Below are positions 2,339 through 29,223 of a DNA stretch of 64,000 nt, in pieces. The notes under the pieces are model-generated. The model saw only the letters and a list, made by a program, of their open reading frames with translations. It did not search any database and was not told the DNA's origin. Source of the stretch: Candidatus Latescibacterota bacterium (GTDB lineage Bacteria > Latescibacterota > UBA2968 > UBA8231). The position numbers and the translations under genes are program-made. The number at the start of each line of letters is the position of its first letter. Position 1 is the first letter of the stretch. The stretch lies in the NCBI GenBank assembly GCA_965204725.1, contig OZ242005.1, forward strand, positions 608,001-672,000, in the 5' to 3' direction.

Positions 2339-2401
2339 CAGTTGATCCATTCGGTAGAAGTAAGGTAATGGGGATGTATCGACGCTACAGATTCTTGGCA
2401 T
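2339..2401 (-). pseudogene. Truncated DUF3368-like PIN toxin (N-terminal ~21 codons only)
   Basis: MPRICSVDTSPLPYFYRMDQL overlaps the end of the UPF0175 gene and resembles the DUF3368 start (NTSPL..L..I.QL); homology stops at the palindrome. Confidence 0.55.
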
Positions 2402-2648
2402 GGAAGAAATCCTTTGCCAGTTCTTCCGGGGGTAGATTGATCGTCGATACTTGGTATGTCTTTAAGGCATCTAAAAACACAACGCGTTCCATACCCGCAA
2501 ATCGAGCGGCTTGCCCAGAAGACAGACTTCCGAGTTCAAACAGTTTGACAGCTATCAGCAGACGTCCTTTTTCGGCGAAGTGTCCAGGCGTTTCGCCGAG
2601 GGTTTGCAGAATATCATCTGGACACTCAAATGTGATTTTAGACATTAT
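2385..2648 (-). CDS. UPF0175 family antitoxin-like protein
   Basis: AVKLFELGSLSSGQAARFAGMERVVFL helix-turn-helix pattern; likely start MSKITFECP. Confidence 0.8.
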   Translation of the reverse strand: MMSKITFECPDDILQTLGETPGHFAEKGRLLIAVKLFELGSLSSGQAARFAGMERVVFLDALKTYQVSTINLPPEELAKDFFHAKNL

Positions 2649-2667: not shown

Positions 2668-4362
2668 TCATTGGGAAAACAACGTCTCGAGGCGGTCCTC
2701 ATATACCACAACCCGCGCTTCGTAGTCCCGCCGCAGCCCGCGCAGGAACTCGTCGGCCAAGCGGCTTTCCTCGGCGCGTTTCAACAGCGCCCGCGCCCGC
2801 TTCGCCGCTGTGTCGAAAGGCTCGGGCGCACTGCCGAAGTTCGACTCCAGCACCTTGAATACCGAATAGTACTCGCCGCCCCGCGGCATGGCCTCCGGGC
2901 CGACCACTTGGGCGGCCTGCGCCGTCACCGCTAGCGGGCCGTACAACCGGCCGACCTCGGCGTTGCGCACCGCGTCGATCAATTCTCGGTAGAAGGATTG
3001 TTCAAAGGCGTGGATGTGGAATTTGCCCTGCGCCCCTTTGCCGACGGCGCGCAAGGTGTGCTCGTCGGCGAGCGGGCCTATCGGCTCCCCTGCCTCGATC
3101 CGCTCCTTGAGCGCGGCGGCCTCGGCCCGGGTTCGCACCATGATCTCCTGCAGCGCGACCTCCTCCGGGGCGGTAAACAACTCGGGCCGCTCGTCGTATA
3201 GGTTTCTGACGGCCTCCGGCTCGATATGGACTTGGTCCTTGACCGCCGTCTGCCTAAGAGCCAAGAGTAACAGTGCGTCTTTGCGGCGCTGGTGCCAGCG
3301 CGCGATCGGCTCTTCGCGGTCCAAGCCCCTTTCTGTGGCCACGTGCAAAAACAAGGTGCGGGGCAGCAGCACGTCTTCGGCGAACCAGCGCACCGACTCG
3401 GCAATGTCGCCGGAAAAACCCATCTTCAACTCGTCAGCGTACTCCCAAAAATCGCCTACGGTGACCCGACCGCCGCGAAATTGAAAGAGCTCCTCGGCGC
3501 GTTCGGCCGCGGTGTACTCTCTCCGCCCGGCCGCGATCTGTTGCTGGAGCTGATGCAAGGTCGCGGCGTTGGCCTGCAAGTCGAGGTCGGTCCGCAGTTG
3601 CGCTAGGAATGCCTCTATCAGCGCGGTCGTCTTTTCCTCTCTCAGCTTGGCCTCCAGCGCATTGCTCGCCGTGGCAAAACTCACGGGCCGGGCGTGCATG
3701 ACTTGATAGATCCCAAACTGACCATTGGGCAAGTCAATCGGCTCTGAGTACTCGCCGACCGCGAGCGCGTTGATATACTGTTGCAGGTAAATCGGGATGC
3801 GGTTGGCAGTCAGATAGCCGTCGAGCTCCCCGCCGTGCGGCGCGGTCGATTGGTGCAGCGACCGGCTGAGCGCCAGTTCGGCGAAATCCCTCCCGTCAGC
3901 CAGACTTTGCCGAATTTGCTCGGCTTCTTGCTGCGTAGCCACGATGATCAGGCGCAGCTTAATCTCGCGCTCCTCGTCCGCGGCCTCGTAGGCCGCGCGC
4001 AGCTCCTGTTCACTGACGCGGACCTTGGCGAGGAATTCGCGCTCGAACAACAGCCGCAACACCCGCTCGGCCTTTTCCCGCCGCAGCTTCTGCGCCACCT
4101 CCGGCGCTTTGTCAAGCCCCCGGTTGAGCGCTTCTTGGAGGAAAATCTCCTTGTCGATAATCGTCTGTAAATAGTCGCGGTAGCCGTCCAAACCGGACTT
4201 CTTGGTCTTTAGCTGCTCTGGCAAGCGCTGTTCAAAGTCGATCAGTTGAGAGGCCGTTATCCGGCGGTCGCCCACTTGGGCCAAAACCGGATCTTCGAGT
4301 TCCTCAGCATCCTTTGCACAACCAGCGAGGACCAAGCCGACGCCCAAAAGTATCAGATTCAT
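2668..4362 (-). CDS. Lipoprotein peptidyl-prolyl isomerase/foldase with two PpiC (parvulin) domains (SurA/PrsA-like)
   Basis: Lipobox LAGC; VLAQVGDRRIT SurA-N-like start; DFAELALSRS..GGELDG and a second parvulin repeat (EIMVRT..IGPLADEHT..G). Confidence 0.85.
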   Translation of the reverse strand: MNLILLGVGLVLAGCAKDAEELEDPVLAQVGDRRITASQLIDFEQRLPEQLKTKKSGLDGYRDYLQTIIDKEIFLQEALNRGLDKAPEVAQKLRREKAERVLRLLFEREFLAKVRVSEQELRAAYEAADEEREIKLRLIIVATQQEAEQIRQSLADGRDFAELALSRSLHQSTAPHGGELDGYLTANRIPIYLQQYINALAVGEYSEPIDLPNGQFGIYQVMHARPVSFATASNALEAKLREEKTTALIEAFLAQLRTDLDLQANAATLHQLQQQIAAGRREYTAAERAEELFQFRGGRVTVGDFWEYADELKMGFSGDIAESVRWFAEDVLLPRTLFLHVATERGLDREEPIARWHQRRKDALLLLALRQTAVKDQVHIEPEAVRNLYDERPELFTAPEEVALQEIMVRTRAEAAALKERIEAGEPIGPLADEHTLRAVGKGAQGKFHIHAFEQSFYRELIDAVRNAEVGRLYGPLAVTAQAAQVVGPEAMPRGGEYYSVFKVLESNFGSAPEPFDTAAKRARALLKRAEESRLADEFLRGLRRDYEARVVVYEDRLETLFSQ

Positions 4363-4390
4363 TTTATTGTACCTTATCTACGGCTTGGCC

Positions 4391-7222
4391 CTAGCGGACG
4401 CTGCCATATACCGTCACGAAGGAAAGCGCGCCCGTCTCCCGCGCACTCGGTTGTTCAAAGCGCTCTAGACGACGTCGGCTCAGCCTAAGCCCCATCAGGG
4501 TTTGCAGGGTATAGCCCAGATACGGCTTGTCGATGGAAAACTGCACGGCGAGCGAGGTCTCGGCGAAATCCCCGGTCACATCGCCAGCGCGCAAACCACC
4601 GGCGGCCGTCTCAGCTTGGACAAAATCGCGGAAAATTAGGTGCTCGACTCCTACCTGCAACAACACGCTGTTCAAAAAGGGGCGTCGCACCAACAGCGAA
4701 AAAATCCCGCTCCAGTCTTGGCGCTCGGCAGCCGCGGCGTTGGTTAGGCGGCCAATGTTATAGGGCGTGTCGTCCATGAAAAGTTCGTGCTTGAAGCGCG
4801 GTTGCACCGCCAGCCGGCCCAGCGAAAACTGGTAGTCAAAGCGGTTGATCAGCCCCAGCCGCCGCGTGGTGCGGGCGATTTTGCGACCGGTGCGATCGCG
4901 GGCCTCGGCGTCGCGCTGCCGAATGAATTCGTGGATGAGCTTGCCCTCGCTATGGATGCCCCGGTAGGGCTTGCTGGTAAAACCAGCCCACAGCCGGTTG
5001 ACGACCGCGTCGCGCATGGCCAGCGGGTCTGCGATGGGCTGCATCGCCCCAGACGAGTTTAGCGGCCGGCCCAGCTCGGGCCGCGCCGTCACCCATTGAA
5101 CCACGTCGTCGGCAATATCGTCCTGCACCACCTTGAACACGTTGTAGAAAGCCGCATTGCCCAGCCGGGGGAAATCGCGCTCGTAGGCCAGCAGGGCGTA
5201 GCGGGTCAGGTTGTTTTCGCCCGTCGATAGGCGCTGAACGTGCTCTTGCCCGGCCATCCACTTCAAGGCCGGCGTCAGCCACGCCCCCAAGTAGGCGTTG
5301 TACCCGCGCCGGTCGCGCTTATAGGGGTAATCCGGCTCGTCGTCGTTTTCAAAGCGCTCGCCCCAACCATTGTTGTTCAAATCGAGGGCAAAGACGAATT
5401 CTGGGCGATCGACGTAGTGGCGCAAAAACTGCTCCTCGTAATCGGGCATGAAGTTCGGGCGCACGGACGTGTTGTTCTGGTTGAAATCGGAAATGAAGTC
5501 GTTGTTCTCGTCGAGCCCGGGGAACACCGCCTCGTCGGCCCAGCCCTCCTTGTCGCGCCGTTGGTCGAGGCGGATGTCGTTGTCGTCGTTGTCGTCGACC
5601 AAGTCGTAGATAAATTCCGACCGCGCCTCTTCGTCGTCGCCGTAGTTGATCCGCCCGCCCTGATCGACGAGGAACGATGTGGTATTGTACTCGGCGTCCA
5701 TGCCAAACGCCTCGCCGAAGAAGAAGAAGGGATGCAATTCTTTGGCGACGTTGATCATCCAGCCCGTCGCTGACTCGTCCCCCAACACGCCGGACGCGCT
5801 GCGGTGGGTCGAGCGCGTGATATTGGGGTACTGCCGGAACTGGTGGTTGACATTGTACTCGGCGTACAGCCGAAAACCCGCCCAATCGCTGACCTCAAAG
5901 CTGAAGCCAAAAACCTGAGTCGCGGTCGGCAAACCGTAGTCGAAAACAACCCACTGCTGATTGGAGTTGTCGCGGACATTGTCGGCCGCCCGCACTACGG
6001 TTAAGAACTTGGATTGGGCACCCAACGGCTCGTTGTCGGTCTGGACATCCGAGGTGACGGCGACCCGGTAATCGTTGTTGAGCAGGAAGCGGAACCGCAC
6101 CGCAGTGATGTTGTTGACCAAGTCGGCGTCGTCGATGAGGTCTTCCAACGCCGCCACGGCCGGGGCCTCCGCGGAAAAATTGTACCGATAGGTGAGCGCG
6201 CCCTCGCTGCCCGCTCCTTCGGCCACGGGAAAGCCATTGCGCGTGGTGCCCCCTTCCACCTGCGGCTGAAAGCCGATTTGGCTGCCGACCAGCACGGTGT
6301 CGCGGCCGCCGATTTGGGTATGGACTTCGATGTCGCGGTCAAAAACCATCGGGCCGCCCACGCCGTCCTCGGGCGAGTCGTCGGTTATGCGGACGATGAT
6401 CCAGTTGATGCGGTTCTCCAGTTGACCATTGGTCAGCTTGCCCTTGAAGGGGTTGCCGCCGCGGTCAGCTTGCGCCCGGCCGTTGTGGGCGTTGACAAAG
6501 GTCGCGCCCAAGCGCACGGCGTTGAGGGCCTTCCATTCGCTCCTGAAGCCGAGCAAATTGGTAAAGTTTTCCGTGACGACCGGGACGCGCACCCCCGGCG
6601 CGATCTGATCCACCGGCAGGCTAATCCGCGCCATCAGCACAGTCGCGGCCAAGCGATCGGCCGCATAGTCGAATTGCACCCCGTTGAAGCGGGTTTTGCG
6701 GAACGTCATCGGCGTCAACGTGGTGTTGATCAAGTCGCCGATGGTCACCCCCAAATAGTGCTGGCCCTTGGCGTCGGTGGCGATGAGCAGGTTGCTAAAC
6801 CACGAGTTGTAGCGGCCGTCCGGCTTGAGCAGGCCCGAGCCCCCCGAGCTGGTCGGCTGCCGCTGCCGCCAGTCGTACACCAGCCAACCCTTGGTTAAAT
6901 AGCGGCCGTACAGGTCGTAGAAATAATCGCCTTCCTGCGCGGGCGAAAAATAGCGCCGGTAGGGCGTCTGGGCGTAGTTGGTGTACTCCCACTGCCAGCG
7001 GTATTCCGGGGCCATTTCCTGCGGCATGTACCAGCGCTTCAACGCGGGGACCAACGCCGCCTGCTGCGTGAGCGGCCCGGTGGCGTAGTAGGAAACCCGG
7101 TCCGCCTCGTTGATCCCCAAGCGGTTGCCGTAGTCGGGCTGGGCACTCGCCGGCGTCAGCCCGGCCAACAAGCAAACCACCGCCCACCTAATGCGCGGCC
7201 CCTTGGTCGAATCGCGTCGCAT
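4391..7222 (-). CDS. Large secreted/putative outer-membrane protein with Asp-rich motifs (paralog A, 943 aa)
   Basis: Signal peptide (ASA-Q); alternating beta-strand pattern; DDSPEDG, DDNDDND, PGLDENNDFISDFNQN, DLNNN; colinear paralog of the adjacent gene. Confidence 0.8.
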   Translation of the reverse strand: MRRDSTKGPRIRWAVVCLLAGLTPASAQPDYGNRLGINEADRVSYYATGPLTQQAALVPALKRWYMPQEMAPEYRWQWEYTNYAQTPYRRYFSPAQEGDYFYDLYGRYLTKGWLVYDWRQRQPTSSGGSGLLKPDGRYNSWFSNLLIATDAKGQHYLGVTIGDLINTTLTPMTFRKTRFNGVQFDYAADRLAATVLMARISLPVDQIAPGVRVPVVTENFTNLLGFRSEWKALNAVRLGATFVNAHNGRAQADRGGNPFKGKLTNGQLENRINWIIVRITDDSPEDGVGGPMVFDRDIEVHTQIGGRDTVLVGSQIGFQPQVEGGTTRNGFPVAEGAGSEGALTYRYNFSAEAPAVAALEDLIDDADLVNNITAVRFRFLLNNDYRVAVTSDVQTDNEPLGAQSKFLTVVRAADNVRDNSNQQWVVFDYGLPTATQVFGFSFEVSDWAGFRLYAEYNVNHQFRQYPNITRSTHRSASGVLGDESATGWMINVAKELHPFFFFGEAFGMDAEYNTTSFLVDQGGRINYGDDEEARSEFIYDLVDDNDDNDIRLDQRRDKEGWADEAVFPGLDENNDFISDFNQNNTSVRPNFMPDYEEQFLRHYVDRPEFVFALDLNNNGWGERFENDDEPDYPYKRDRRGYNAYLGAWLTPALKWMAGQEHVQRLSTGENNLTRYALLAYERDFPRLGNAAFYNVFKVVQDDIADDVVQWVTARPELGRPLNSSGAMQPIADPLAMRDAVVNRLWAGFTSKPYRGIHSEGKLIHEFIRQRDAEARDRTGRKIARTTRRLGLINRFDYQFSLGRLAVQPRFKHELFMDDTPYNIGRLTNAAAAERQDWSGIFSLLVRRPFLNSVLLQVGVEHLIFRDFVQAETAAGGLRAGDVTGDFAETSLAVQFSIDKPYLGYTLQTLMGLRLSRRRLERFEQPSARETGALSFVTVYGSVR

Positions 7223-10020
7223 TACTCTACCCCAGCGTACACCGAGATAAAACTAGTCCCAAAGGAGCGGCTCTCGCTCTGCTTGACGAGGCCCTCGGCA
7301 CTCAACACCACGGCCTCGTCCCACCGCTTGGTATAACTAAGGCCGAACTGGGTGGTCAGCTTGTAGCCGAGATAGTGCCCGAGCGTCGTCCACTGCAAGG
7401 CCAAGACCAAGTTGCGAAAATCGCCCGTGTCTGCGGTGGGGCCGTCGGCCAGCAATGCGTCTTCGTCTAGGACCAACTCGCGGAACATCGAATACTCCAC
7501 GCCGCTTTCGAGGAAGGAGTTGTTCAACACCGGCAGCCGCGCCTGCACAATGCCGATGCCCATCCACTCCTTGCGATCGGGCTCGGCCCGCAAAAAGGCC
7601 GTCTGGTTGAGGTATTCGCTTTTGAGCTTGGGTTGCAGCACGAGCTGGCCGATTTCGTAGGTGTAATCCGCCTTATTGATCAGCCCCAGAAACTGGGTGC
7701 GTGGATTGAGAATGGGCGCGTCGCCGCTTTTGAACGCCTGACCGCGCTGGCGGAAGAGGCTGTACTTGAACTTGTTGATCACGTTTAATTTTTTGACCGG
7801 CGCATAATCGAATTGCACGTAGCTGTCATTGACCCAAGTGTCCCGAGCCGGCAGGATGTCCTCGACGAGGGCCAGCGAGACCGTCTGCAAGTCGGGCGTT
7901 GGCTCGCGGCGAATGTCCGGGATGTTGTCGGCGACCTTTTTCAGGGAATTGAAAAACCGCAAGCGACCCCAGCGCGGGTGGTCGCGGTCGTACGCGAAAA
8001 CGCCGTACGTCACGTGGTTGCGGCGGTCGGACGAGATCTCGTTTTCGCGCAGCCGCCCTACGGTCAAGCGCGCGTCCGGCGTCAGGTGCTGGCCGACGTA
8101 CACATTGTACCCCCGGTGATTGCGGCGATAGGGGTAGTCGGGCAAGTCGTCGTTTTCAAACCGGTCGATCCAGTTGTTGTTGTTGAGGTCAATGCCGAAG
8201 AGGAATTCTGGGCGATCGACGTTGTAGCGGAAAAACGGCTCCTCGTAATCCGGGATGCGATTGCTCAGGGAGACGTTGTCGTTCTGGTTGAAATCCGAGA
8301 CGAAGTCGTTGTTTTCGTCCCAACCGGGAAAGACGATCGCATCGGGGCCGCCTTGGCCCCAGCGGTTCCAATCCGGCGTGCGGTCTTGGTCGTCGTTGTC
8401 ATCGACGAACTCATAGACCGAGGTGCGCTCGTCGTCGTAATACACGCTGCCGCCCGAATCGACGATAAACGCCGTCGTCGAGTACGCCGGGTCCATGCTG
8501 AAGGCTTCGCCGAACAAGAAAAACGGATACGCCTGCTTGGAAACATTGACCATCCAAGCGGCCGCGTCGCGGGCGTGGGTATTCAGGTTGCGATCCGAGT
8601 TGACGAGCGTGAGGTTGGGATACTGGGTGTAAGCGCGATTGATGTCGTACTCGGCATAGGCATCAAAGCCCAGCAACTGCAACACCTCCAGCGTGAACCC
8701 AAACACCATGTTGGCCGACGGCAACCCATAGTCGAAGACGACGCGCTGTTGGTTTGAATTGTCCGTCACATTGCCGGCCGCACTGCGGACGTCAAAGAGC
8801 ACGGCCCCGGCTTGCTCCAAATCCAAGCTCGTAAGCGGCGGACTGGGTAGGCTGCCGCGCCCGATCTGGCGGTCGGACCAAACTTGGATCTTGTAGTCGT
8901 TAGCAACGACCAAATCGAACTGGATATCGACGATCTCGGTCGGCCTGGGGCCAATATAGGCCAAGTCGGCGAAATCGTAGTTGATGACGATTTGCTCCTC
9001 GCCATCGGCCGCCAAAAAACCCTCCCGGGGGAAGCCGCCAGTGACGACCGGCCACTTGGTCGGATCGGCGACCACCTCCCGCCAGCGGAATTTCGTGCGC
9101 TTCTTGGTGTTGAAGTCCTCGGCCGTAATGATGATGTCGTGGGCAAACAGCGCCGCCCCGCCCCGACCATCTTCCGGGGAGTCGTCGCTCAGGACCACGG
9201 CGATGGCCCGAATAGGGTCGCTGCCCTGCTCGGCCCCCAAGGTGCCGACGAGCGGGTTGCGTTCAAACGCCTCGGCCAGCGTCTGCGAGTGATGGGCATT
9301 GACCAGCGTCGCGCCGAGCTTGACGAAATCCCCCACCTGCGCGGTGGCCCGGCCCCCCATCATATTGGTCGCGTTGGTCGAGGTGCTGGGCTGGCGCTCG
9401 GGGGTGGTGCCGAGAATGGCCTCGCTGGCGCGGGAGAACAACAGCGTCGCTTCGTATTTGTCTGCGGCAAAGTCCATCTGGATGCCGTTGAAGCGCGGCT
9501 TTGAAAAGGTCAGCGGGGTCAGGGCCGTGCGAATGCGCTCGCCGATGGTTATCGCCAAGTAATACTGATCTCGTGCGTCGGAAGAAACCGTGACGGCGTT
9601 GAACCACGAATTGAACTTGGGGTCTTTGTATATCGACGAACCAAATTGGCCCGGTTGGGTCTGGTTCCAGTCGAAAATCAACCAACCCCAAGTCTGGTAA
9701 TTCCCGTACAGGTCGTAAAACGGCCCGCCTTGGCGGTTGGTGTTGACGTAGCGCTGGTATAGGTCGCGTGCGTAATTCGAGTACTCCCACTGGCGAAAGC
9801 CGTAATCGACGTATAGCTCCTGCGGCACGTACCATTTCTTGAGCGCCGGATCGAGGGCATCGAAGAGGACGCCCGGCCCTCTGGGCTCAAAGGTGAGCTG
9901 GGCGCCGCGCTGGGTCCCGAAACGACGGTCCAGCGACTGGCCGACCGCCCCGGTCGCCGGCCATACCAGCGCCAACGCCCAGAGGACCAACCACGCGGAT
10001 ACCCCCCTAGTTCTGCCCAT
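7222..10020 (-). CDS. Large secreted/putative outer-membrane protein with Asp-rich motifs (paralog B, ~932 aa)
   Basis: Signal peptide; same motifs (PALKKWYVPQE, DDSPEDG, DDNDDQD, PGWDENNDFVSDFNQN); stop overlaps the start of paralog A (TAATG). Confidence 0.8.
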   Translation of the reverse strand: MGRTRGVSAWLVLWALALVWPATGAVGQSLDRRFGTQRGAQLTFEPRGPGVLFDALDPALKKWYVPQELYVDYGFRQWEYSNYARDLYQRYVNTNRQGGPFYDLYGNYQTWGWLIFDWNQTQPGQFGSSIYKDPKFNSWFNAVTVSSDARDQYYLAITIGERIRTALTPLTFSKPRFNGIQMDFAADKYEATLLFSRASEAILGTTPERQPSTSTNATNMMGGRATAQVGDFVKLGATLVNAHHSQTLAEAFERNPLVGTLGAEQGSDPIRAIAVVLSDDSPEDGRGGAALFAHDIIITAEDFNTKKRTKFRWREVVADPTKWPVVTGGFPREGFLAADGEEQIVINYDFADLAYIGPRPTEIVDIQFDLVVANDYKIQVWSDRQIGRGSLPSPPLTSLDLEQAGAVLFDVRSAAGNVTDNSNQQRVVFDYGLPSANMVFGFTLEVLQLLGFDAYAEYDINRAYTQYPNLTLVNSDRNLNTHARDAAAWMVNVSKQAYPFFLFGEAFSMDPAYSTTAFIVDSGGSVYYDDERTSVYEFVDDNDDQDRTPDWNRWGQGGPDAIVFPGWDENNDFVSDFNQNDNVSLSNRIPDYEEPFFRYNVDRPEFLFGIDLNNNNWIDRFENDDLPDYPYRRNHRGYNVYVGQHLTPDARLTVGRLRENEISSDRRNHVTYGVFAYDRDHPRWGRLRFFNSLKKVADNIPDIRREPTPDLQTVSLALVEDILPARDTWVNDSYVQFDYAPVKKLNVINKFKYSLFRQRGQAFKSGDAPILNPRTQFLGLINKADYTYEIGQLVLQPKLKSEYLNQTAFLRAEPDRKEWMGIGIVQARLPVLNNSFLESGVEYSMFRELVLDEDALLADGPTADTGDFRNLVLALQWTTLGHYLGYKLTTQFGLSYTKRWDEAVVLSAEGLVKQSESRSFGTSFISVYAGVE

Positions 10021-10050
10021 CAAATTCCTCCATCAAAGGTCGATACGGAC

Positions 10051-10383
10051 TCACGCCTTCCGAGCATTCCTCAATTTGCCGACCCAAGCCAGTACTACGA
10101 TGACCACCGGCCAAAACATGGTATTGATTAGATCGTGAATACTCGCCGTCAGGGCTGTCTGGCGAAAGTAACTCAGATAGGTATAATCGTCGCGTAAGTC
10201 AAAAACCTCCATCAGGGCCGCCGTAATGGCGACCGGGATCAAACAACGCGATTCAATCGCGCCCTTTTTCCACAGGACTACGGCCCCAAAAAACACGAGC
10301 AATCCGAGGTGAACGTGGATCGAGTCGTGTGAAAGCTCCAAGAGGGTGGTGATTACGGACTTAGCGTTTTGATAGGTGGACAT
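10051..10383 (-). CDS. Small membrane protein, hypothetical
   Basis: 110 aa with ~3 TM segments; HVHLGL, MEVFD and DLINTMFWP motifs; GAGG RBS. Confidence 0.7.
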   Translation of the reverse strand: MSTYQNAKSVITTLLELSHDSIHVHLGLLVFFGAVVLWKKGAIESRCLIPVAITAALMEVFDLRDDYTYLSYFRQTALTASIHDLINTMFWPVVIVVLAWVGKLRNARKA

Positions 10384-10410
10384 TGCCTCGTTTTTATTCC
10401 ATGTGTGCCG

Positions 10411-12618
10411 TTAATAAACCATTTCGACGACGCCCAGTGCCGCTTCCTTTTTGGCATCGGTCGCCAAATGGACGCGGAAGAGGTAGATGCCCGGGGGCGC
10501 CCGTCGGCCCGCCGAGTCCGTGCCGTCCCACGCTACGGCAAAACTCCCGCCTCCTTGCTCGCCGGCAAAGAGCGTACGGACGCGCCGCCCAGCCAGATCG
10601 AACACGCGCACAGTAAGCGGCGCGGCATCAACCAACCGCACCAGATCGCAGTGGATCCGGGTTTCGTCGTTGACCCCATCGCCGTTGGGGCTGAACAGAC
10701 GCGGTTGGGCCGCGACGTTGATCATCAGTCGGCGGCCCGCCAGCGGCACCTTTACCGCTAGGTCGTTTGGGTCGGCCGCCCCTAGGGGGATCAAATCGTC
10801 GTCCGCGGGTCCCAAGTCGGCTGCGTTGCCGCCGATGACCCGCTGGCCGAGGGCGTCGGCGGTGCTGTTCCAAGCAGTGCCGGCAAAGGTCGTACCAAAC
10901 CGCAGCACTCGGCACTGGAAGCGGATTTTGACCACCGCCGCCCGCCCGGCCGCCAAATCGCTTTCCTCAATCGCGGGAAAGCGCACCCGTAGATACCGCT
11001 CGGTCGCCGCTTCCACGGCAAAGAGGCCGCTGGCGTCTGAGACGGGCAGATCGGTCAAGGCGACGCCGGTGAAGTCGGCCGTTTGCACCGCGCCGTCGGC
11101 GTGTACGACCTCAATGGTCTCGACCGCTTCGGCCCGCACGGGCGTGGCGATCTCAAACACGTCAAACCCCAAATCGACGCCCCGGCGCATTTTGGTCGGC
11201 AGGACGGCATACGTGAACGACACCGGAACGCCCAGCTCGACTTGGCGCGGGACGACCTCGCTGACGATCCGCTCGGTCAGCGGCGGGTTCGACACCGTAA
11301 AGGCGAGGGCACCCAACGCCCGGGCGGATTCTAAATCTTCGCTCGCAAATTCGGCCTTCAACTGGAAGTAGCGGCGGGGGCCGGGCGAGAGGATGGGCAC
11401 ACCGAGCGTATCCTCGGCCGTTCGCTTGTACGGCGGCGACCAGCGGCTCCACGCGACTAGGTCGTCGCGCACATCGCCCTTATCCGCATTTCTCAAATCG
11501 TCGTACTCGTCCTGCGTCAGCGCGACTTGATTGCGCTCGACAATGGGCAGGGCGTTGAACAGGTCGAGGGCCGCTTGGCCGTCCTCCATGGCGTCGAGGT
11601 CAACCGCATCGCCTGCGGCCGTGGTCGCAACCGCTCCTTCCCGCCACGGCACGTCCTCGCCGTAGCCGCGATGTTGGCGGGTAAATTCCACAGGAGTGTC
11701 GTCCCAACCGCTACGCGAACTTATCTGCAAGCGCGACAGACGCTCGACTCCTACGTGCTCCTCTTGCCAGCGGACGCGCCCCCACAGCGCCAATTCCGCG
11801 CCAAAATCGAAGACATTGGAAAGATAATCGGCGCGGGGCACAAAACCGGAGCCAAAGACGCGAAATTCCGCGATCTCAAATCCCACAGTGGTCTGGGATT
11901 TTAAGCGGATGTAGCGGACGTATTGCGGCGGGATGGTCAGTTCGACGACCGGCTCTTCGTTTTCCGGCTCCAGTTCAACGGTGGTCAGCACCGGCTGATT
12001 GGCGACCTGCGTTTCTTCGCTGCCGTCGTTGAGCAGCAACTCAAAGCCCCGCAGAAAATCGTTTTGGAACGGAAAGTCCGGGGTGGGGAAATCGGGGTGC
12101 GCGTTGCGGGGAAAAAACTGGATGCGCTCGACCCCAAACCGCGCCCCGAGATCGAAATCCATGATGACCCCCAAGGAGTTGACTTGGCTCGCCCCTCGGG
12201 CTGTCTTGCGCTCAAAGGCGGTCGCGGGGTCGTCGTCAATCATAAAAATCAACTGGTCTTTTATGACCTGCGACAATATGGTCGGCGCACCGAGACGACC
12301 GCCGCGGTCGAGAAGGCCCAAGGCGATATTCGCGGTCTCATCCGCCCGTTGCGGCGTCATCCAGCCCAGCCGGCCAGCCGCGTCAAATTCGAGTACATTG
12401 CCCGGGGTATTGCTGACCTCGACCTCGGTCGGGCCGGTTTGGATCAAGGCCGCAATGGTCCCGCCGCCGCCAGCCCACTCCAACCCGTCCTCGCCGCCCA
12501 TGACGATGGTACGGCGTTCAGCCCCTAGGTCTTGGACCACCAAAAACATCAGCACGAGGGCCTTCGCGCCCAGATACAACACAGCCGATTCTCTCCTCGA
12601 TCGGTTGGGATAGGTCAA
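10411..12618 (-). CDS. Secreted discoidin-like + FlgD Ig-like domain protein (paralog 1)
   Basis: IDDDPATAF...DFDLG...RYIRL...EIAEFRVFG; C-terminal FSPNGDGVND...VFDLAGRRVRTL...WDG...PPGIYL. Confidence 0.85.
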   Translation of the reverse strand: MTYPNRSRRESAVLYLGAKALVLMFLVVQDLGAERRTIVMGGEDGLEWAGGGGTIAALIQTGPTEVEVSNTPGNVLEFDAAGRLGWMTPQRADETANIALGLLDRGGRLGAPTILSQVIKDQLIFMIDDDPATAFERKTARGASQVNSLGVIMDFDLGARFGVERIQFFPRNAHPDFPTPDFPFQNDFLRGFELLLNDGSEETQVANQPVLTTVELEPENEEPVVELTIPPQYVRYIRLKSQTTVGFEIAEFRVFGSGFVPRADYLSNVFDFGAELALWGRVRWQEEHVGVERLSRLQISSRSGWDDTPVEFTRQHRGYGEDVPWREGAVATTAAGDAVDLDAMEDGQAALDLFNALPIVERNQVALTQDEYDDLRNADKGDVRDDLVAWSRWSPPYKRTAEDTLGVPILSPGPRRYFQLKAEFASEDLESARALGALAFTVSNPPLTERIVSEVVPRQVELGVPVSFTYAVLPTKMRRGVDLGFDVFEIATPVRAEAVETIEVVHADGAVQTADFTGVALTDLPVSDASGLFAVEAATERYLRVRFPAIEESDLAAGRAAVVKIRFQCRVLRFGTTFAGTAWNSTADALGQRVIGGNAADLGPADDDLIPLGAADPNDLAVKVPLAGRRLMINVAAQPRLFSPNGDGVNDETRIHCDLVRLVDAAPLTVRVFDLAGRRVRTLFAGEQGGGSFAVAWDGTDSAGRRAPPGIYLFRVHLATDAKKEAALGVVEMVY

Positions 12619-15188
12619 TACGCCACGTGCAGCACGCGCTGAACCCCCGTTTGCCGGACGCCGCGGTCCGAATCTGCGTCCACGTCGATCCGCAAGATAT
12701 ACACCCCGGGCGGAACCACCTGCCCCTGCTCGTCTTGGGCCGCCCAGTCAATCCCGTATTGCCCGGCCACTAAGGGCTTGTAGGCATCGAGCCGACGCAC
12801 CAAGCGGCCACCGAGGTCGTAGATTCGCACTTTGACGGGCCGCGCCCCGCTCAGCCGACGCACGGTGAAATCAATGGTTAGCGCGTCGTTGACCCCGTCG
12901 CCGTTGGGCGTCACGACCTCGGGCTGAATGCCCAAGTCGCCGAGGACTTTGTCGTCCTGCACCGACGCTACGATCTGCAACCCCCCGCTCTGGGCCAGTT
13001 CGGTGACGTCCGCGGGGTCAACTTGCTGCCACGAGTTGGCCAACGACGAATTGCCCAGCGCCGCTTGCAGGACGACCCCAGGCGAAAACAGGGCCGTAGT
13101 AAACCGCACCTCAAGCAAGTCGATCTGCCCGCCCCGCTCGACCAGCCGGTCGAGGCGCAACCAGAGCGAGTCCGAGCGCGTTTCCACCACTTCTACGGCG
13201 AGCTCCTCGGGTTGGCCGCTGGCCCACTGCGCCGAGCTACCCAAGCGCAACGCGCCAAACTCGAGCGACATATCCGGCGGCGAGCGCACCAAGATCTCAT
13301 CAAAGCCCAGATCCTGCGGCCCAAAGGTCGGCTCGACAAACAGCGAAACCTCCTGCGGCGCACCCAAGCGCGCAAAGACCCCGAGGTCTAGTTCGCCCTG
13401 AAGCTGCTTGGCGACCGGCGGATTGAAGTTCAAGCGGATGGAGTGCAATCGGGCCGCCTCCATGGGGTCGGCGGTCGCCAACCGGGCGCGCAATAGCAGG
13501 TATTGACGCGGGCTGGGCGAAGTAATGGGGTCGCCGGAACGCACGTAGGGCGCGCTCCAATTGCTCCAGTCGGAACCGGCCACCTGTAGGGTGTCGATTC
13601 GACCCTTCTTAAAAAAGCCCAACTTCTCGTATTTGCCCGCCGAGACTTCCACGCCGCCACTGTCGTAGTACCGATAGGCTTCGGCCACCTCGTTGCCGGT
13701 GCGGGTTTGGATTTGCACCGCCGTGCCCGAGGGCGCGTCCGCCTCCCATTCGATGGACACGAGGCTCTTGGCCCCCTGCAAGGGAATCAGCCCCGACTCC
13801 AGCGCCACCTCGGGATGATACCCTTCACCGTAGATCTGCACTTCGCGGACACGCGCCTTATTCCCCTCTCGGCCCGACTCGCTGCTGGCAAAGGGATAGG
13901 CTAGGCGCACAAAGCGGGCCGGCGTCGGCTCGAAGGTGTTGACCTCAAACGCCGTGCCCAAGCCGCGGACCTGGGCCGGCGCCGCCCACAACCGGCCGCC
14001 ACCGGGGGCGGGCGTACCATCTGAAGTCTGGATTTCGTATTGGTGAAAACTGGCACCCGTCAGCCGGCCGCCGGCGACGCTGAGGTTGTACCATAGCTGC
14101 ACGGTGTCGAGCCAGTAGGAAGCCCCTAGGTCAAACTCCAGAAAGCGCTCGCCAAAGGCCACGTTCCCCGTCTGAAAGGCTTTGAGATTAAAGGTCAGAT
14201 AGGTCCCCTCCCCATCGACGAGGTTGCCCACAGACCCTTCGTGCGAGCTTTCGGCGCTGCCATTGCGGTCGAGGATCAGGCCCTGCGAAATGTTTTTGCC
14301 CAGCTCATAGACAGCCAACTCGGCCAAGCGCGGCCGCTCCCGCCGATAGTAGCGCACCGAGCCGCGCAACTGCGGGTCAATCGCCTCGTAAATCGCTTGC
14401 TCGACCTCCACCTCCCCTTCCCCCACCTGCTTGTAGAAAACCACGTCTCCCCGGTCGCGCCTCGCCAACGCTTCATACTCGTCGGCCGACACCTCGACCG
14501 CACGTCCTCCGTCGCTTTCGGAGACCACGATTTGGACGAAGCGCACCATGTCGCCGGCAAAATCCACCCCGGGCACCGGATTGATGAGCTCCCCGCGGTT
14601 CAGGTCGAACTCAAACGCGCGCTGGTTTTTGTTGTCGCTGGGCGTCCGGTACACCAAGTGCATGGGCACTTTGCCCGCCACCTTGTTGCCTTGGTCCGCA
14701 TTGTCAGCCGTTAGCACCGCGAACTGTAGGAAGGGATCGCCCTGCCCCTCGGGCACAAATTGCAACCCAATGCGCGTGGCGTTGATCAACCGCCCCATAT
14801 CGACTTGGAACCACCAATCCCGCAGCGGGCTGTCCGGGTCGGGTTCCCAATAGGTCGTTGCGTCGCCGTCGAAGAGGTTGGCGACCGCCGCCTGATTGGT
14901 CCCGGCCTCAATCGCGTCGAGGATGGTCGCGTTGTCGGGATCGGAAGCGGTGCGCCGCAGGTGTTGGACAATGTCCGTCACGGCGTTGTGGTCCTTGGGC
15001 ACGAAGGCCGGAGCGACCGCCCCGCTGGCCGAGAGGTCCAGCGTCCCCTCGACAAAGGCCCAATGGCTCCAGTGGCGTTGGGTATTTACGGCGACGTGGT
15101 CGGAGCGCAAGGCGTGATTCTGCGCCCCAACCAACCCCCACAACCCGAGCCCCATCCCCAGCGCCAGTGCGAATTTTTCGCGGACCAT
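12615..15188 (-). CDS. Secreted protein with two discoidin-like modules and a FlgD Ig-like domain (paralog 2, 857 aa)
   Basis: Start corrected to MVREKFALAL (AGGAG RBS, signal peptide); LFDGDATTYW, DMGRL, FDLGASY; VTPNGDGVND...IYDLGGRLVR...PPGVYIL. Confidence 0.85.
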   Translation of the reverse strand: MVREKFALALGMGLGLWGLVGAQNHALRSDHVAVNTQRHWSHWAFVEGTLDLSASGAVAPAFVPKDHNAVTDIVQHLRRTASDPDNATILDAIEAGTNQAAVANLFDGDATTYWEPDPDSPLRDWWFQVDMGRLINATRIGLQFVPEGQGDPFLQFAVLTADNADQGNKVAGKVPMHLVYRTPSDNKNQRAFEFDLNRGELINPVPGVDFAGDMVRFVQIVVSESDGGRAVEVSADEYEALARRDRGDVVFYKQVGEGEVEVEQAIYEAIDPQLRGSVRYYRRERPRLAELAVYELGKNISQGLILDRNGSAESSHEGSVGNLVDGEGTYLTFNLKAFQTGNVAFGERFLEFDLGASYWLDTVQLWYNLSVAGGRLTGASFHQYEIQTSDGTPAPGGGRLWAAPAQVRGLGTAFEVNTFEPTPARFVRLAYPFASSESGREGNKARVREVQIYGEGYHPEVALESGLIPLQGAKSLVSIEWEADAPSGTAVQIQTRTGNEVAEAYRYYDSGGVEVSAGKYEKLGFFKKGRIDTLQVAGSDWSNWSAPYVRSGDPITSPSPRQYLLLRARLATADPMEAARLHSIRLNFNPPVAKQLQGELDLGVFARLGAPQEVSLFVEPTFGPQDLGFDEILVRSPPDMSLEFGALRLGSSAQWASGQPEELAVEVVETRSDSLWLRLDRLVERGGQIDLLEVRFTTALFSPGVVLQAALGNSSLANSWQQVDPADVTELAQSGGLQIVASVQDDKVLGDLGIQPEVVTPNGDGVNDALTIDFTVRRLSGARPVKVRIYDLGGRLVRRLDAYKPLVAGQYGIDWAAQDEQGQVVPPGVYILRIDVDADSDRGVRQTGVQRVLHVAY

Positions 15189-15213
15189 AGCCAATCTCCT
15201 CAACGAGCCGGTT

Positions 15214-17202
15214 TCAATAGGCGACCGCGGCAACCCCAGTGCGCTGCTGCGGCCCCTCTTCGGTCTGTACCTCAACGCGGCAAATGTACACCCCCGGGGC
15301 CACCGGCTGGCCGCGCTCGTCCAAACCGTCCCATTGCCGCCGGTGGCGACCGGCCGCGTCGCGCCCCTGATACACCGCACGCACCAACCCGCCGGCCAAG
15401 TCCCGCACCTCCACCACGGTCGGGGTCGGCACCACCAGTTTGAGCAGATTATAAGTAATGTCCAATCCGTCGTTGACGCCGTCGCCGTTGGGCGTAAAAA
15501 CGCCCCCGGCCAAGTCGAGCGCCCCAAGGACCCGAGTGCCCAGCGCAACCGCCTGCACCGAAAGGGTGTTGCCGTCGCGCAGGGCTGTGGCATCGCCCGC
15601 CTGCACCGACTGCCCAATCTCCTGCGGGGTTTGGCTGTCGGACACGCGCCCGGCAAAGGTCGCTCCGTAGCGGAAAATCTCGCCGCTGAAATCCACCTCC
15701 ACCACCTCTTCCGTGCGGTCCACGTCCAGCCTCGGTACGCCGACCACCAGCCGCTCGCCGCCTTCTTCGATCCGCTCAAAAGCCACCGCTTGCCCCCCGA
15801 TCCGCACGTCGTCAATGCTCACCAAGCGCCCGCCTTGAGCCGAGATTTCCAAGCGGTCAAACCCCGGATCGTCGAGTCCAATGGTGGGCCGGATGGCGTA
15901 GGTAAACTGCGTCACTTGGGCCGTTTCTGCCTGATAGGGATCAATTTCTCCCACCAGCGCCGCGACGGTCGGCCGCGACGCGGTAAACTCCAAGTAATTC
16001 ACCCGGCTGCCCGCGGCGACATTCGATTGGAAGTCCAAATCAAATTGCACAAAACGCCGGGGCTTGGTCGCCGACCAGCGCGTCCCGGTGCTGTCGCTAA
16101 AATCGTAGGTCGTCGACCAGAAATCCCAATGGTCGGCATCGCGGGTGATCCGGCCGCGCTCGGAAATTTCCAAGCGTCCGTAGGTCCGCAGGGTCAGCGG
16201 CCTGCCCCTGCTGTCGTAGTTCACCTGCTCGTCGCCGCGGAACGTATGACGCCAGTATATGTTGGGGTCGGCATCGCTGCCGCTCTGGCTGCGGACGTTG
16301 ACCGTGGCCTCAGCGTCCTCGCGCCCCGACCAGCGCAGTTCGCCGAGCGTGACCTCTTGGCCTAAATCGAGGATGTTGGACCGGTACGAGGCGTTGGGCA
16401 CATAGCCGGGGGCGAAGATCTCGAACTCGGCGATCTCCCAATCGCGCGTCGGCTGCGAAGGCACAAACAGCACCACGCGCCGAATGTACTCACCGGTGAG
16501 TTCCACCTCCACGGTGGAGCGGGTGTTTTCCTCGACCTCCAATAGCGCGTTGAAATACATGTCTTTGCGGTTGTACAGATCGCGGTGCGCCCGGTTGATG
16601 AAGTCCAAGCAGTTATCCGTCCGCCCGGCCGTACACAAATCTACGCTGCTGATCCCGGCTTCCTCAATCGTCAGCGTATTGGTCCAAACGTGAAAGAGTT
16701 CGATGTAGTTGTCTTCGTTGCCGGTGCGCGTAAAAAAGCGGAGGCGATCTACGGCAAATAAACCCCCGAGGTCGAACAACAAGGTTTTGCCGAACCGCAA
16801 GTCATCCCCCACGTTCACCCGATTCGATCCCTTCTCCTCGTAATAGGCCGTCTCGCGATCGCCGTCGTTTATCAAGACGATATCGTCGGTTTCGATCCAA
16901 GCCTGAAAGCCTTGGGTCTGCAAGTAGCCGCCGCGATCTTTGACGGTCGGCGCGATGTTGAAATCAGCGGGAAAGAACAACGGGGCAATGCCGTCGGGAG
17001 CAATCGTCAGGGACTCGCTGACCCCCTGCAAGTCGGCATCGAGCGCGGCCCAGCTAAATTGGACGAAATCAGCTTCCCCGCTGGCCACTTCGGGCGGCAG
17101 CGGCAAGCCCTCGCCACCCAACCGATAGACGGTCAATCCCACCACCGGAGCACTGCTCGCGGCCAACAACAGCGCGACGCAGCATCCTCTAAATGCGACC
17201 AT
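15214..17202 (-). CDS. Secreted discoidin-like + FlgD Ig-like domain protein (paralog 3)
   Basis: Start MVAFRG (GGAGA RBS); INDGDRETAY, FDLGG, WEIAEFEIF; FTPNGDGVND...DLAGGLVR...WDG...APGVY. Confidence 0.85.
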   Translation of the reverse strand: MVAFRGCCVALLLAASSAPVVGLTVYRLGGEGLPLPPEVASGEADFVQFSWAALDADLQGVSESLTIAPDGIAPLFFPADFNIAPTVKDRGGYLQTQGFQAWIETDDIVLINDGDRETAYYEEKGSNRVNVGDDLRFGKTLLFDLGGLFAVDRLRFFTRTGNEDNYIELFHVWTNTLTIEEAGISSVDLCTAGRTDNCLDFINRAHRDLYNRKDMYFNALLEVEENTRSTVEVELTGEYIRRVVLFVPSQPTRDWEIAEFEIFAPGYVPNASYRSNILDLGQEVTLGELRWSGREDAEATVNVRSQSGSDADPNIYWRHTFRGDEQVNYDSRGRPLTLRTYGRLEISERGRITRDADHWDFWSTTYDFSDSTGTRWSATKPRRFVQFDLDFQSNVAAGSRVNYLEFTASRPTVAALVGEIDPYQAETAQVTQFTYAIRPTIGLDDPGFDRLEISAQGGRLVSIDDVRIGGQAVAFERIEEGGERLVVGVPRLDVDRTEEVVEVDFSGEIFRYGATFAGRVSDSQTPQEIGQSVQAGDATALRDGNTLSVQAVALGTRVLGALDLAGGVFTPNGDGVNDGLDITYNLLKLVVPTPTVVEVRDLAGGLVRAVYQGRDAAGRHRRQWDGLDERGQPVAPGVYICRVEVQTEEGPQQRTGVAAVAY

Positions 17203-17234
17203 ACGAACATCTCCCAAGGAGAAGGACTTTATAA

Positions 17235-17269
17235 CTGAAGGGGAGATGCCCTAGACACCTCCCCTTCAG
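17235..17269 (-). terminator. Stem-loop after the first cassette gene (terminator/attenuator or mRNA stabiliser)
   Basis: CTGAAGGGGA...TCCCCTTCAG 10-bp perfect stem; weak U-tract. Confidence 0.55.
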
Positions 17270-17300
17270 AGACTACAGGTACTGACAGACGCGAAGCAAA

Positions 17301-18263
17301 CTATTGGATATAGACCGCCTTGATGCGCCCCCAGCTTTCTTCTTCCACCGAGGTGCCGGTGCCGAGGCTGCTGAAATCCACGCGGGGATCAATCGGCGCG
17401 AGCAGGAAGTCCGAGCAATTGACGCAGTCGAACCACATCTGGATGTTGGGGTTGATGCCCCAGCCGCCATCGCTGGCGCCGCCGTTGTCCTCTTCGGCCG
17501 AATCCATGTCGTGTACGACCCAGCCCAAGCCGATGGTATTGCCCTCGACAAAGGTGTGAATTTGGCTCTCGTCCGGGCCGACCCAGTAGAAATCGTCCCA
17601 AGCAACCGACATCACCTCAATGCGCGCGGTGACCTCGCCGGAGTTGACTTCGCCATCTAGCTGGAACCCGTAATCGCCCCACGGGGGCTTGTCGTGCCAA
17701 GTGGAATTGCTGTTGAAGAACCACTTCCAACCGACGGCTCGGTTGGCATCGGGCAATTCAGGCCAGACATAGTGGGCGTTCTGGGCCAGCCGGCCTTGGT
17801 TGCGCTGGCGCTCTTCGTCGTCGTCGTAGTCGTCGGGGAGCGCGAAGTGCCGGTCGCCGCCGTGGTCGGCGTCGATCATGATTTCCCAGCTATCGTCGCC
17901 CGCGGCCACCGCGCCGACGCCATTGCGATCCCAGTAGTTGTCAAAACGCTCCATCATCAGGTAGAGGCGGTTGGTTCCCGCGCTCCACGCACCCACCACC
18001 CGAAACGACAGATTGCTCTCATCGTTTTCGTGGCCCAAGCCGAGATAGTACTCGAAGTGCGAGTCAAAGGGAACGTAGTAATCCTCTGGGACGATATCCC
18101 ATTCCGAGAGGTCGCCGTCCAAGGTGGGTTCCTGACCTGCGGGCCACTGGAAAAGCGTACCGGAGTCAATGCCGGGGATCGGCACATGGGCCGATGCCGC
18201 GCTGGCCTGTAGCAGGATGCCGAGGGCCAAAACAGTCGCGCTGCTCAGAATTTTCTTCTTCAT
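17301..18263 (-). CDS. Secreted CBM9/DOMON-like protein with C-terminal TSVEEESWGRIK motif
   Basis: Start MKKKILSS (GAGGTGA RBS); signal ASA-H; PTLDGDLSEW, NRLYL, DSWEIMIDAD, IGLGWVVHDMD typical of CBM9-like folds. Confidence 0.75.
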   Translation of the reverse strand: MKKKILSSATVLALGILLQASAASAHVPIPGIDSGTLFQWPAGQEPTLDGDLSEWDIVPEDYYVPFDSHFEYYLGLGHENDESNLSFRVVGAWSAGTNRLYLMMERFDNYWDRNGVGAVAAGDDSWEIMIDADHGGDRHFALPDDYDDDEERQRNQGRLAQNAHYVWPELPDANRAVGWKWFFNSNSTWHDKPPWGDYGFQLDGEVNSGEVTARIEVMSVAWDDFYWVGPDESQIHTFVEGNTIGLGWVVHDMDSAEEDNGGASDGGWGINPNIQMWFDCVNCSDFLLAPIDPRVDFSSLGTGTSVEEESWGRIKAVYIQ

Positions 18264-18368
18264 AATGCGATTCACCTCATAGGTTCGTGGATTAAACGGG
18301 TCAAAAAACGAAAGTGAGCTTCTAATGCCAAACGGCCTCTGCACCTCCTTTCATCAGCTCTTAATAAT

Positions 18369-18386
18369 TGCTAAACAACATTAGCA
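18369..18386. promoter_or_regulatory. Possible operator TGCTAA-N6-TTAGCA in the AT-rich cassette promoter region
   Basis: Perfect 6-bp dyad in an AT-rich intergenic segment upstream of the cassette. Confidence 0.3.
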
Positions 18387-18425
18387 CAATATGCAAAAAA
18401 CGGCAAACAATTATGTTGGCGGCGG

Positions 18426-21769: not shown

Positions 21770-21797
21770 GCGGTTTCTCACGTCCCGTCCCATCCCC

Positions 21798-28686: not shown

Positions 28687-29223
28687 GATGGCGGCCAGTG
28701 CTTCCCACAGGTAAGCCGCCAAGCTGTAATCGACCCACAGGCGGTACGCGCGCTGCCCATCCTCGCTGCGCGGCAGGACCGCACAAGCCGCACCCGCCAC
28801 CTGCGTGTACACCATCCGTCCTGCCGGCGCACGGGCCAAATCCACCGCGCAAGCCTGCGCCCAAATGCCCGCGGTCGCATGGCCGCGCACCACCAAGGTC
28901 GCCGACTGCTGCTCCACCCGATACACGCCGGCCTCGGCCGCGTCCAACGCCGCGTTCAGCCGCGCCCAGAGCGCGTCTTGGGGTCGGCACTCCAAGATCA
29001 GTTCGCCCGCACCCACCCGCGCCAAAACCCCGTCCGCGCCCACGAGCCGCGTGTCGTATATCCGCGCTGGCAATCCGAGCGTGTGCTGCTCGGCCCACTC
29101 GACCAAGCGCGGACCTTTGGCCCCGATCTGGACCGTATCAACCGGATGGTGCAAGGCGGCCTGCACCGCAGCCGGTGCGTCGGCGACGAGATGAGCGATG
29201 GGACTTTGGCGCGTCGCGGTCAT
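28645..29223 (-). CDS. soxG: Sarcosine oxidase gamma / N-methylglutamate dehydrogenase subunit D
   Basis: [41 protein letters not shown]; ATG overlaps the hsdR stop (ATGA). Confidence 0.8.

Follow-up and report, generated by a model that had tools for sequence, protein, structure and literature searches.

Introduction

Proteins with a type-B tail that use type IX secretion (T9SS) are held on the cell surface by a barrel of their own, a PorP/SprF protein encoded in their neighbourhood (PMC9143113, PMC12618676), and type IX systems may also occur in other phyla of the Fibrobacterota-Chlorobiota-Bacteroidota (FCB) group (PMC11285876). Other described systems that invite comparison are the multi-copy SusCD sets of the Bacteroidota; the SlpA protein of Deinococcus, a 30-strand barrel (residues 254-1167) with pore insertions that carry metal sites (PMC9388160); the parvulin chaperones SurA, PrsA and PEB4 (Cbf2); and copper proteins with a histidine brace, in which the N-terminal His is joined by another His (PMC10952591). 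Here we compare these systems with a seven-gene locus of a Candidatus Latescibacterota bacterium (assembly GCA_965204725.1). The locus occupies positions 2,668 to 18,263 of a stretch of 64,000 nucleotides (contig OZ242005.1, positions 608,001 to 672,000), which we refer to as the window and from the first letter of which all positions are counted. It is the only copy of this module in the window.

The Latescibacterota form a widespread phylum of uncultured bacteria. In the consulted passages of the 2015 Latescibacteria genome paper, mentions are limited to non-specific porins and TonB receptors (PMC4454575). The module is among the most repeated envelope gene sets of these bacteria, and its core families, namely the large paralogs A and B, the small protein G1 and the bodies of the tail-bearing proteins G2, G3 and G4, are without annotation. 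The A/B family alone amounts to 974 clusters at 50% identity, 343 of which match the A profile at E<=1e-30. A literature search found no paper describing this gene set, and the view of the initial annotation that the locus has no named counterpart stood up, as no described system matched it; the module is perhaps a cell-surface machine of a new type. By analogy with type-B cargo and its anchor, we tentatively propose, at somewhat less than an even chance, that it consists of tail-bearing surface proteins and a dedicated outer-membrane partner pair, conserved in multiple copies in the Latescibacterota.

A recurring module of seven exported proteins

The module comprises seven head-to-tail open reading frames (ORFs), all on the minus strand, with N-termini that resemble signal peptides (judged by eye for all seven proteins), which bears out the seven co-oriented exported genes annotated at this place. 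From G1 onwards these are G1 (17301-18263; 320 aa), a small secreted protein of a family without name; G2 (15214-17217; 667 aa), exported, with a C-terminal FlgD-Ig/CHU_C domain and the end V-A-Y; G3 (12615-15188; 857 aa), exported, with an N-terminal discoidin/CBM32-like module, possibly two, and a CHU_C/FlgD-Ig tail; G4 (10411-12585, or to 12618 with a TTG start; ~724 aa, 735 from the TTG), exported, again with a CHU_C/FlgD-Ig tail; A (7222-10023; 933 aa), exported and a probable large outer-membrane beta-barrel; B (4391-7222; 943 aa), which is paralogous to A and probably the other barrel of the pair; and G7 (2668-4362; 564 aa), a lipoprotein of the SurA/PrsA kind that contains two parvulin (PPIC-type) domains. 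Two overlapping stop/start pairs had been reported. The one at 7222 is present, with the stop of A and the start of B sharing TAATG, whereas the one at 12615-12618 exists only if G4 starts at the TTG; the likelier start is a GTG 30 nt downstream (~12585), which is preceded by GAGGAGAG. The ATG of G3 (15188) has GAGGAG in front. The 387-nt gap between G4 and A contains a 110-aa ORF (10051-10383, minus strand) with hydrophobic stretches, which was absent from the earlier gene list. It had no Pfam match, and it is either a recent insertion or no gene, because tblastn found no counterpart in 80 related loci.

These related loci were obtained by running a profile of A relatives over one genome per species, which matched at least 669 stretches, 626 of them encoding a relative; the best 80 loci were taken for synteny and trees. 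According to the titles of the metagenome-assembled genomes (MAGs), 60 of the 80 are from Latescibacterota and 20 carry Gemmatimonadota-type names. ORFs were called in these loci and searched with the window proteins. Synteny counts refer to the 61 loci with full 10-kb flanks (full loci below), and counts for the position of B to the 73 loci that extend at least 7 kb downstream. The gene set had been put forward as a candidate system that would fall if its genes were not found together elsewhere, and the test in these related loci clearly went against that objection: since the set co-occurs in them, the clustering is far beyond chance and a chance cluster is excluded. A G4-type protein was found in all 61 full loci and a G2-type protein in 60; at least three FlgD-tail proteins were present in 59, G1 in 58, B in 53 and the double parvulin G7 in 52. 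All seven types occurred together in 41 of the 61.

The order of the genes is constrained as well. Among the 72 members of the G4 clade outside the window, 70 end no more than 350 nt from the start of A, directly upstream of it. B follows A directly in 57 of 73 loci, comes after an intervening G7 in six, stands later in one and is absent from nine. Overall we found at least seven fixed arrangements, the exact order of the window being shared by 17 loci. Among the best 80 loci, up to five came from one MAG, and three from many.

The nine loci of the class that lacks B (L056, L062, L064, L065, L067, L068, L070, L071 and L074) have the order G4 A G1 G2 G7 G3, and A may work without B in this class. 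A 380-aa gene beside these loci, which looked cytoplasmic by eye, was not counted as a module member.

A and B are paralogs that probably form very large outer-membrane barrels

A and B had been described as colinear paralogs, and indeed they align over 963 columns at 39% identity. Neither had a Pfam or NCBIfam match at E<=0.01 or a match to a PDB sequence, and no PDB chain was matched by profile for A, or by sequence or profile for its distant relative P0175. Among 8000 candidates scored, 899 were relatives of A at E<=0.001. In the tree, A (80 sequences) and B (67) are reciprocally monophyletic with support 1.0, and their inner subtrees run parallel. This pattern fits a co-evolving pair, in agreement with the earlier proposal that A and B belong together. 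By eye, both proteins have signal peptides and no long hydrophobic helices.

The fold of A was approached by mean-field covariation with 460 family members (effective number 215). Six-residue ladders were predominantly antiparallel, with an antiparallel to parallel ratio of 88:7 at z>4.5 and 49:1 at z>5. In residues ~650-931 these ladders form consecutive strand-sharing hairpins, which amounts to an up-and-down meander of at least 10 strands. Barrel closure was not detected in A by covariation; a reduced-alphabet run over the whole of A yielded numerous spurious long-range ladders at columns with indels but no closure that was credible, and a hydrophobic-moment strand scan of A was uninformative. 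Distant full-length relatives of A and B gave matches to the Pfam model SlpA_C below its cut-off of 35 bits (16.8-33.5 bits; in 9 of a first 22 and in 14 of a further 14), always at profile positions ~177-330, and the proteins P0175 and P0271-P0389 bear precomputed SlpA_C labels. In a language-model feature search with two A homologues, the nearest named cluster was DUF6029 (0.89, 160-162 shared features), a lead only, and there was no HMM match to DUF6029. We read A and B as being, probably, very large outer-membrane barrels because of the antiparallel meander, the sub-threshold SlpA_C matches in distant relatives and this weak language-model lead.

Conservation along A peaks at residues 41-120, at 161-200 and in the acidic part at 561-640 (mean pairwise identity 0.69-0.81 for the three, 0.75-0.81 for the last) and is lowest in the meander (0.41-0.51). 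The acidic segment spans residues ~540-640 and has many invariant Asp and Asn residues; in both A and B it is probably a metal-binding insert. The terminal SF..VYxxV strand noted earlier in the two proteins is present, with its aromatic residue at position -5 and not at the very end. A more distant A/B subfamily, represented by P0175 (~980 aa, 26-28% identical), is more expanded still: of its 120 listed clusters, 13 appear to lie on one contig of 5,870,491 bp, six on another and five on a third.

The SlpA_C matches raise the question of whether A and B could, like SlpA and OmpM, tether the outer membrane or anchor an S-layer. The matches fall in a constant region of the distant relatives, mature A has about the length of the SlpA barrel span (~905 aa), and the SlpA barrel also has inserts. 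In contrast to SlpA and OmpM, however, A and B have no detectable SLH domain or coiled-coil stalk, all of the matches stay under the curated cut-off, and A and B form a heterotypic pair in place of the homotrimer of SlpA. The presence of many divergent paralogs in a genome is also ill-suited to a structural tether, and the Latescibacterota, as members of the FCB group, stand outside the lineages for which OmpM/SlpA tethers are described in the source that we consulted (PMC10628300). We therefore regard a tether function as extremely improbable.

Three tail proteins end in a domain probably of the type-B kind

G2, G3 and G4 all exceeded the Pfam cut-off for FlgD_ig (36.1, 31.3 and 46.9 bits, respectively; cut-off 27), and G3 and G4 also exceeded that for CHU_C (39.0 and 31.2 bits; cut-off 27). 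This is in line with the C-terminal FlgD-Ig domain ending in V/M-x-Y that each had been assigned. The last residue is Tyr in all 206 relatives (85/85 of the G2 type, 49/49 of the G3 type and 72/72 of the G4 type), with V, L, I or M at position -3. When 27 relatives were scanned, 24 matched FlgD_ig or CHU_C at E<=0.001, and neither was found in three of the G3 type. Against the PDB, the G4 profile found FlgD Ig domains only (3osv, E 1e-9), the PorU tail being a weak match (E 0.058). Judged by these profile matches, the tail probably belongs to the CHU_C kind, the type-B signal of type IX secretion, which the initial annotation had overlooked, and a cargo protein with its own outer-membrane anchor is therefore a closer analogy for the module than SusCD.

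The single architecture that had been ascribed to the three proteins held for the tail, which all of them have, but not for the remainder. G2 and G4 align from end to end (residues 86-724, E 9e-52), whereas G3 has only its C-terminal ~370 residues in common with G4 (E 9e-28). The discoidin module, likewise ascribed to all three, was found in G3 (F5_F8_type_C, 36.4 bits; cut-off 28.2); G2 and G4 do not reach the cut-off. A type C model was matched at E<=0.001 by 11 of 12 G3-type relatives, and the profile of the G3 family matched the CBM32 chain 4a42 (E 0.0015, residues 101-216), with a weak match to 4a41 (E 0.16, residues 333-399) marking a second candidate module. In the tree, the tail proteins fall into three clades, G2 (85), G4 (73) and G3 (51), with support of 0.97-1.0 (0.97 for G2 and 1.0 for G3). 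Because these are three old orthologous groups, the three proteins are non-redundant, as had been supposed. The clade structure of A, B and the tail proteins taken together therefore indicates that the whole set was duplicated as a unit, many times and long ago.

A small secreted protein with an invariant His at its predicted N-terminus

G1 had been labelled CBM9-like, which we reject at the sequence level: none of the 15 family members scanned had a Pfam match at E<=1, and there was no PDB match. G1 itself had no match in Pfam, NCBIfam or the PDB, its profile is unrelated to that of G4, and all of the 248 relatives that it finds are without name; none of the 120 listed of these 248 has a precomputed Pfam domain. 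A conserved feature of the family is a His directly after the predicted signal-peptidase site (A-x-A, then H), which every one of the 64 relatives that carry the anchor motif DGDLSEW has; this count leaves out 6 of 70 ORFs that lack the motif and takes the cleavage site as predicted by eye. The family further has an invariant Asp/His cluster (DGDLSEWD and DADHSGG), a second invariant His (H134) and, in 64 of 68 relatives, a C-terminal strand SWGxIKAxY/F.

The N-terminal His and the second His could form a histidine-brace copper site, or the Asp cluster could provide a calcium site. The likeness to histidine-brace copper proteins (lytic polysaccharide monooxygenases, LPMOs, and the CopC/YcnI type) lies in the predicted first mature residue, which is His, and in the invariance of the second His. 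Unlike these proteins, the G1 family matches no LPMO or copper-protein family, and calcium binding is an equally plausible role for its Asp cluster. On the basis of the motif, G1 could represent a new metal-protein family marked by the invariant, predicted N-terminal His. The conserved terminal strands of G1, of the tail proteins and of A/B are, by their sequence patterns, candidates for docking by strand addition.

Upstream of G1 there is a non-coding leader of ~150 nt (18264-18400, minus strand), which is conserved across the seven closest loci. Its features include AAAGGAGG, a T-run and, ahead of the ATG, CCACGAACC-ATGAGGTGA; the upstream GTG frame is disrupted by indels. An RNA fold of this leader was without support (-2.5 kcal/mol, 0 compensatory pairs), and an Rfam search of the window gave no match.

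A dedicated double-parvulin lipoprotein

The assignment of G7 as a double parvulin was corroborated, as each half scores above the 27-bit cut-off for Rotamase_2 (35.4 and 28.6 bits) and the two halves align with each other at E 9e-7; the whole protein scores 55.8 bits. The nearest solved chains are PrsA (9ibn, E 1.5e-7) and Cbf2, and the NCBIfam equivalog cut-offs, including those of SurA and PrsA, were not reached. G7 has the lipobox LAGC, and a lipobox-type Cys pattern was present in 34 of 56 relatives, with other relatives having the variants LMGC and FMGC. As the alignment of its halves indicates, a PrsA-like unit has been duplicated in tandem within G7. It resembles SurA, PrsA and PEB4 (Cbf2) in that its parvulin domains are flanked by helical segments of the chaperone type, and PrsA in its lipoprotein signal. 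It differs from all of them in being a tandem duplicate of the whole PrsA-like unit and in being encoded by the module rather than as a housekeeping protein.

A proposed mechanism and its alternatives

The gene set, its recurrence, the paralogy, the named domains and the antiparallel meander of A are observations, from which the barrel fold, the location at the surface, all contacts, the route of export and the ligand are inferred. In the arrangement that we propose, A and B would be a co-evolved pair of barrels, each with an acidic insert that is strongly conserved and probably binds metal. The proteins G2, G3 and G4 would be Sec-exported, modular proteins with a discoidin/CBM32-type or related N-terminus, a beta-rich middle and an Ig-like tail, and would reach the cell surface, with the A/B pair anchoring or exporting them and G1. 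G4 would pair directly with A, G1 would be a fourth, small secreted subunit, and G7 would be the periplasmic chaperone of barrels or subunits. Differing binding heads would be displayed by the several copies within a genome, with G1 and G3 as the most divergent parts. Such differing heads would point to the capture of ligands at the surface and perhaps to their passage through the barrels.

The closest parallel is with the T9SS type-B pairs SprB-SprF and PG1035-PorP. As in these pairs, the gene of a protein with an Ig-like, CHU_C-type tail adjoins that of a (here predicted) outer-membrane protein, G4 next to A in 70 of 72 cases, and a genome has several sets of cargo and partner. In contrast to them, the partners in the module are two ~930-aa paralogs without a PorP/SprF match, and this pair is accompanied by three cargo-type proteins, G1 and a dedicated double parvulin. 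Outright membership in the type-B systems fails because A and B are not PorP/SprF proteins, are larger, are paired and come with a dedicated double parvulin. If A/B does anchor or export tail-bearing proteins, protein display in the FCB group would extend beyond the small PorP/SprF partners.

Several results weigh against this proposal. The partner barrels of the Bacteroidota are small, ~300-350 aa, and A and B are about three times larger. Neither A nor B matched the PorP/SprF, FadL, Omp85, usher or TonB-receptor models, neither of them gave an SlpA_C match of the kind seen in their distant relatives, and their C-terminus, S-F-I-T-V-Y-A-G-[LV]-E, has no terminal aromatic residue. On the side of the cargo, CHU_C remained under its cut-off in G2 (25.6 bits), and the NCBIfam type-B model TIGR04131 (cut-off 35 bits) scored only 17.8 bits in G3 and 18.9 in G4 and had no match in G2. 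The N-terminal region of G4 is its most conserved part (0.50-0.58), unlike a binding head that diversifies. An A/B heteromer is not obligatory, because nine loci have no B inside the flank. Finally, no glycoside hydrolase or lyase was among the 20 most recurrent neighbour families of the 80 loci.

The presence of a periplasmic chaperone gene in 52 of 61 full loci, which type-B pairs of cargo and anchor do not need, can also be read differently: the module could be a self-contained secretion or assembly system independent of type IX, with A/B as a dedicated translocon in the usher or two-partner style for G1 to G4 and with G7 delivering them. The conserved C-terminal strands (V-x-Y in 206/206 tail proteins, SWGxIKA in 64/68 G1 relatives) would then serve as docking signals, and the fixed stoichiometry of the gene types would be in keeping with such a system. 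Yet A and B resemble none of the models for ushers, Omp85/TpsB or autotransporters, and the family of the tail domain serves elsewhere as a type IX signal. In addition, G7 may serve A/B rather than the cargo, since SurA-type chaperones normally act on barrel proteins. Weighing these points, we find a self-contained translocon distinctly unlikely.

Going further than our proposal of tail-bearing proteins with a partner pair, one can imagine a self-sufficient and so far undescribed machine. A hetero-oligomer of two ~30-strand barrels with a calcium-binding insert would export and then hold its own three tail-bearing subunits together with a histidine-brace metalloprotein, without TonB or a type IX apparatus, and the Latescibacterota and related lineages would have expanded it into many paralogs as their counterpart of SusCD for polymer capture and perhaps oxidative attack and import. 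We put this forward as a speculation that is unlikely.

Neighbouring genes and the question of sugar uptake

The surroundings of the module bear on whether it takes up nutrients. Of the sugar genes that had been named as neighbours, an enolase-superfamily (MR_MLE) gene and a family-5 binding protein (SBP5) are present in the window, but rhaM was not found: the small ORF just downstream of G7 (2385-2645, minus strand; MSKITFECPDD...) is not rhaM and looks like a UPF0175-type antitoxin. The argument for sugar uptake that had been built on these neighbours does not hold, as MR_MLE occurs in 6 and SBP5 in 3 of the 61 full loci. We also rejected a reading of the locus as a polysaccharide-utilisation locus, there being no linked enzymes and no conserved sugar genes.

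A TonB-independent nutrient importer analogous to SusCD would have A/B as the channel, G1 to G4 as lids or binders and a DUF6785/DUF6784 protein as the inner-membrane permease. In the window, a membrane protein of this kind (21567-23717, plus strand; DUF6785 413 bits, DUF6784 107 bits) lies 3.3 kb from G1 and is a candidate accessory of uncertain membership; a second one (40199-42169, minus strand) has many hydrophobic spans in a hydropathy scan. Neither a PDB nor an NCBIfam match was found for DUF6785/DUF6784. A DUF6785 relative occurs within 10 kb in 24 of the 61 full loci, at a median of ~3.3 kb from the module, and DUF6785/DUF6784 proteins were near the module in 17 of the 80 loci by clustering and in 26 by phmmer. 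They are never within the module span, however, and are often on the opposite strand. The importer would have in its favour that the module, like SusCD, forms multi-copy paralogous outer-membrane sets in an FCB-group phylum (up to five of the best 80 loci in one MAG, and apparently 13 of the 120 listed clusters of the distant subfamily on a single contig) and would, to judge by its domains, combine a big barrel with surface proteins that have carbohydrate-binding-type modules, such as the CBM32-type module of G3. FG-GAP/UnbV_ASPIC proteins in 23 of the 80 loci, sulfatase genes in 4 and genes of FGE-sulfatase (maturase) in 5 would also suit it.

Set against this, membership in SusCD fails. No Plug or TonB_dep_Rec match was found in A, B or 22 distant relatives, and a Pfam/NCBIfam scan of the module found no SusD domain; the surface subunits have no lipoprotein signal; and linked glycosidases and regulators are missing, as none of the 20 neighbour families that recur most often is a glycoside hydrolase, a lyase or a regulator. 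The sugar-type neighbours seen in the window are, as described above, not conserved, and a passive pore this large would leak without energy coupling. An importer is in our view unlikely, but if A/B is a channel, it would represent a second solution to polymer capture in the FCB superphylum, unrelated to SusCD.

Glycosyltransferases among the neighbours suggest yet another possibility, namely that the module exports a polysaccharide or glycoconjugate that forms a surface coat, with A and B as porins of the Wzi/DUF6029 kind and with PMT_2 and tetratricopeptide repeat (TPR) glycosyltransferases making or attaching the glycan. DUF6029, the nearest named cluster in the language-model search, has been tied to Wzi-like export barrels (PMC9603273). 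Moreover, PMT_2+TPR glycosyltransferases were found in 16 of the 80 loci, a membrane-plus-TPR protein, found in 15-16 loci, lies within the module span in 15 of 16 scored, and the window has PMT_2 genes at 2-1039 and 57991-60081. The DUF6029 score is at lead level only, though, and is not accompanied by an HMM match; no genes for Wza/OPX, Wzx/Wzy, an ABC exporter or a synthase were among the recurrent neighbours; and the glycosyltransferases could equally modify the module's own proteins. Glycan export thus seems very unlikely to us, and the PMT_2+TPR and membrane-TPR proteins might instead glycosylate the proteins of the module.

The membrane-plus-TPR protein belongs to one class of loci (L032-L050; e.g. 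L034:15724-17478), where it is encoded between B and G1 and combines a membrane part at the N-terminus with TPR repeats at the C-terminus, and PMT_2+TPR proteins adjoin other classes of the module. A TPR lipoprotein was near the module in 28 of the 80 loci, and pentapeptide proteins in 10. Within the window, an MR_MLE gene is paired twice with a gene for a PMT_2 membrane glycosyltransferase (2-2190 and 55664-60081, minus strand).

A region of low GC content (0.51-0.57) at 29220-45012 looks like a defence island. It carries type I restriction genes, among them hsdR (29220-31433), a piece of an S subunit fused with DUF559 (34543-35976) and an N6 methylase (42388-45012), together with genes for a DUF1828/DUF1829 protein and a Schlafen AlbA_2/ATPase protein.

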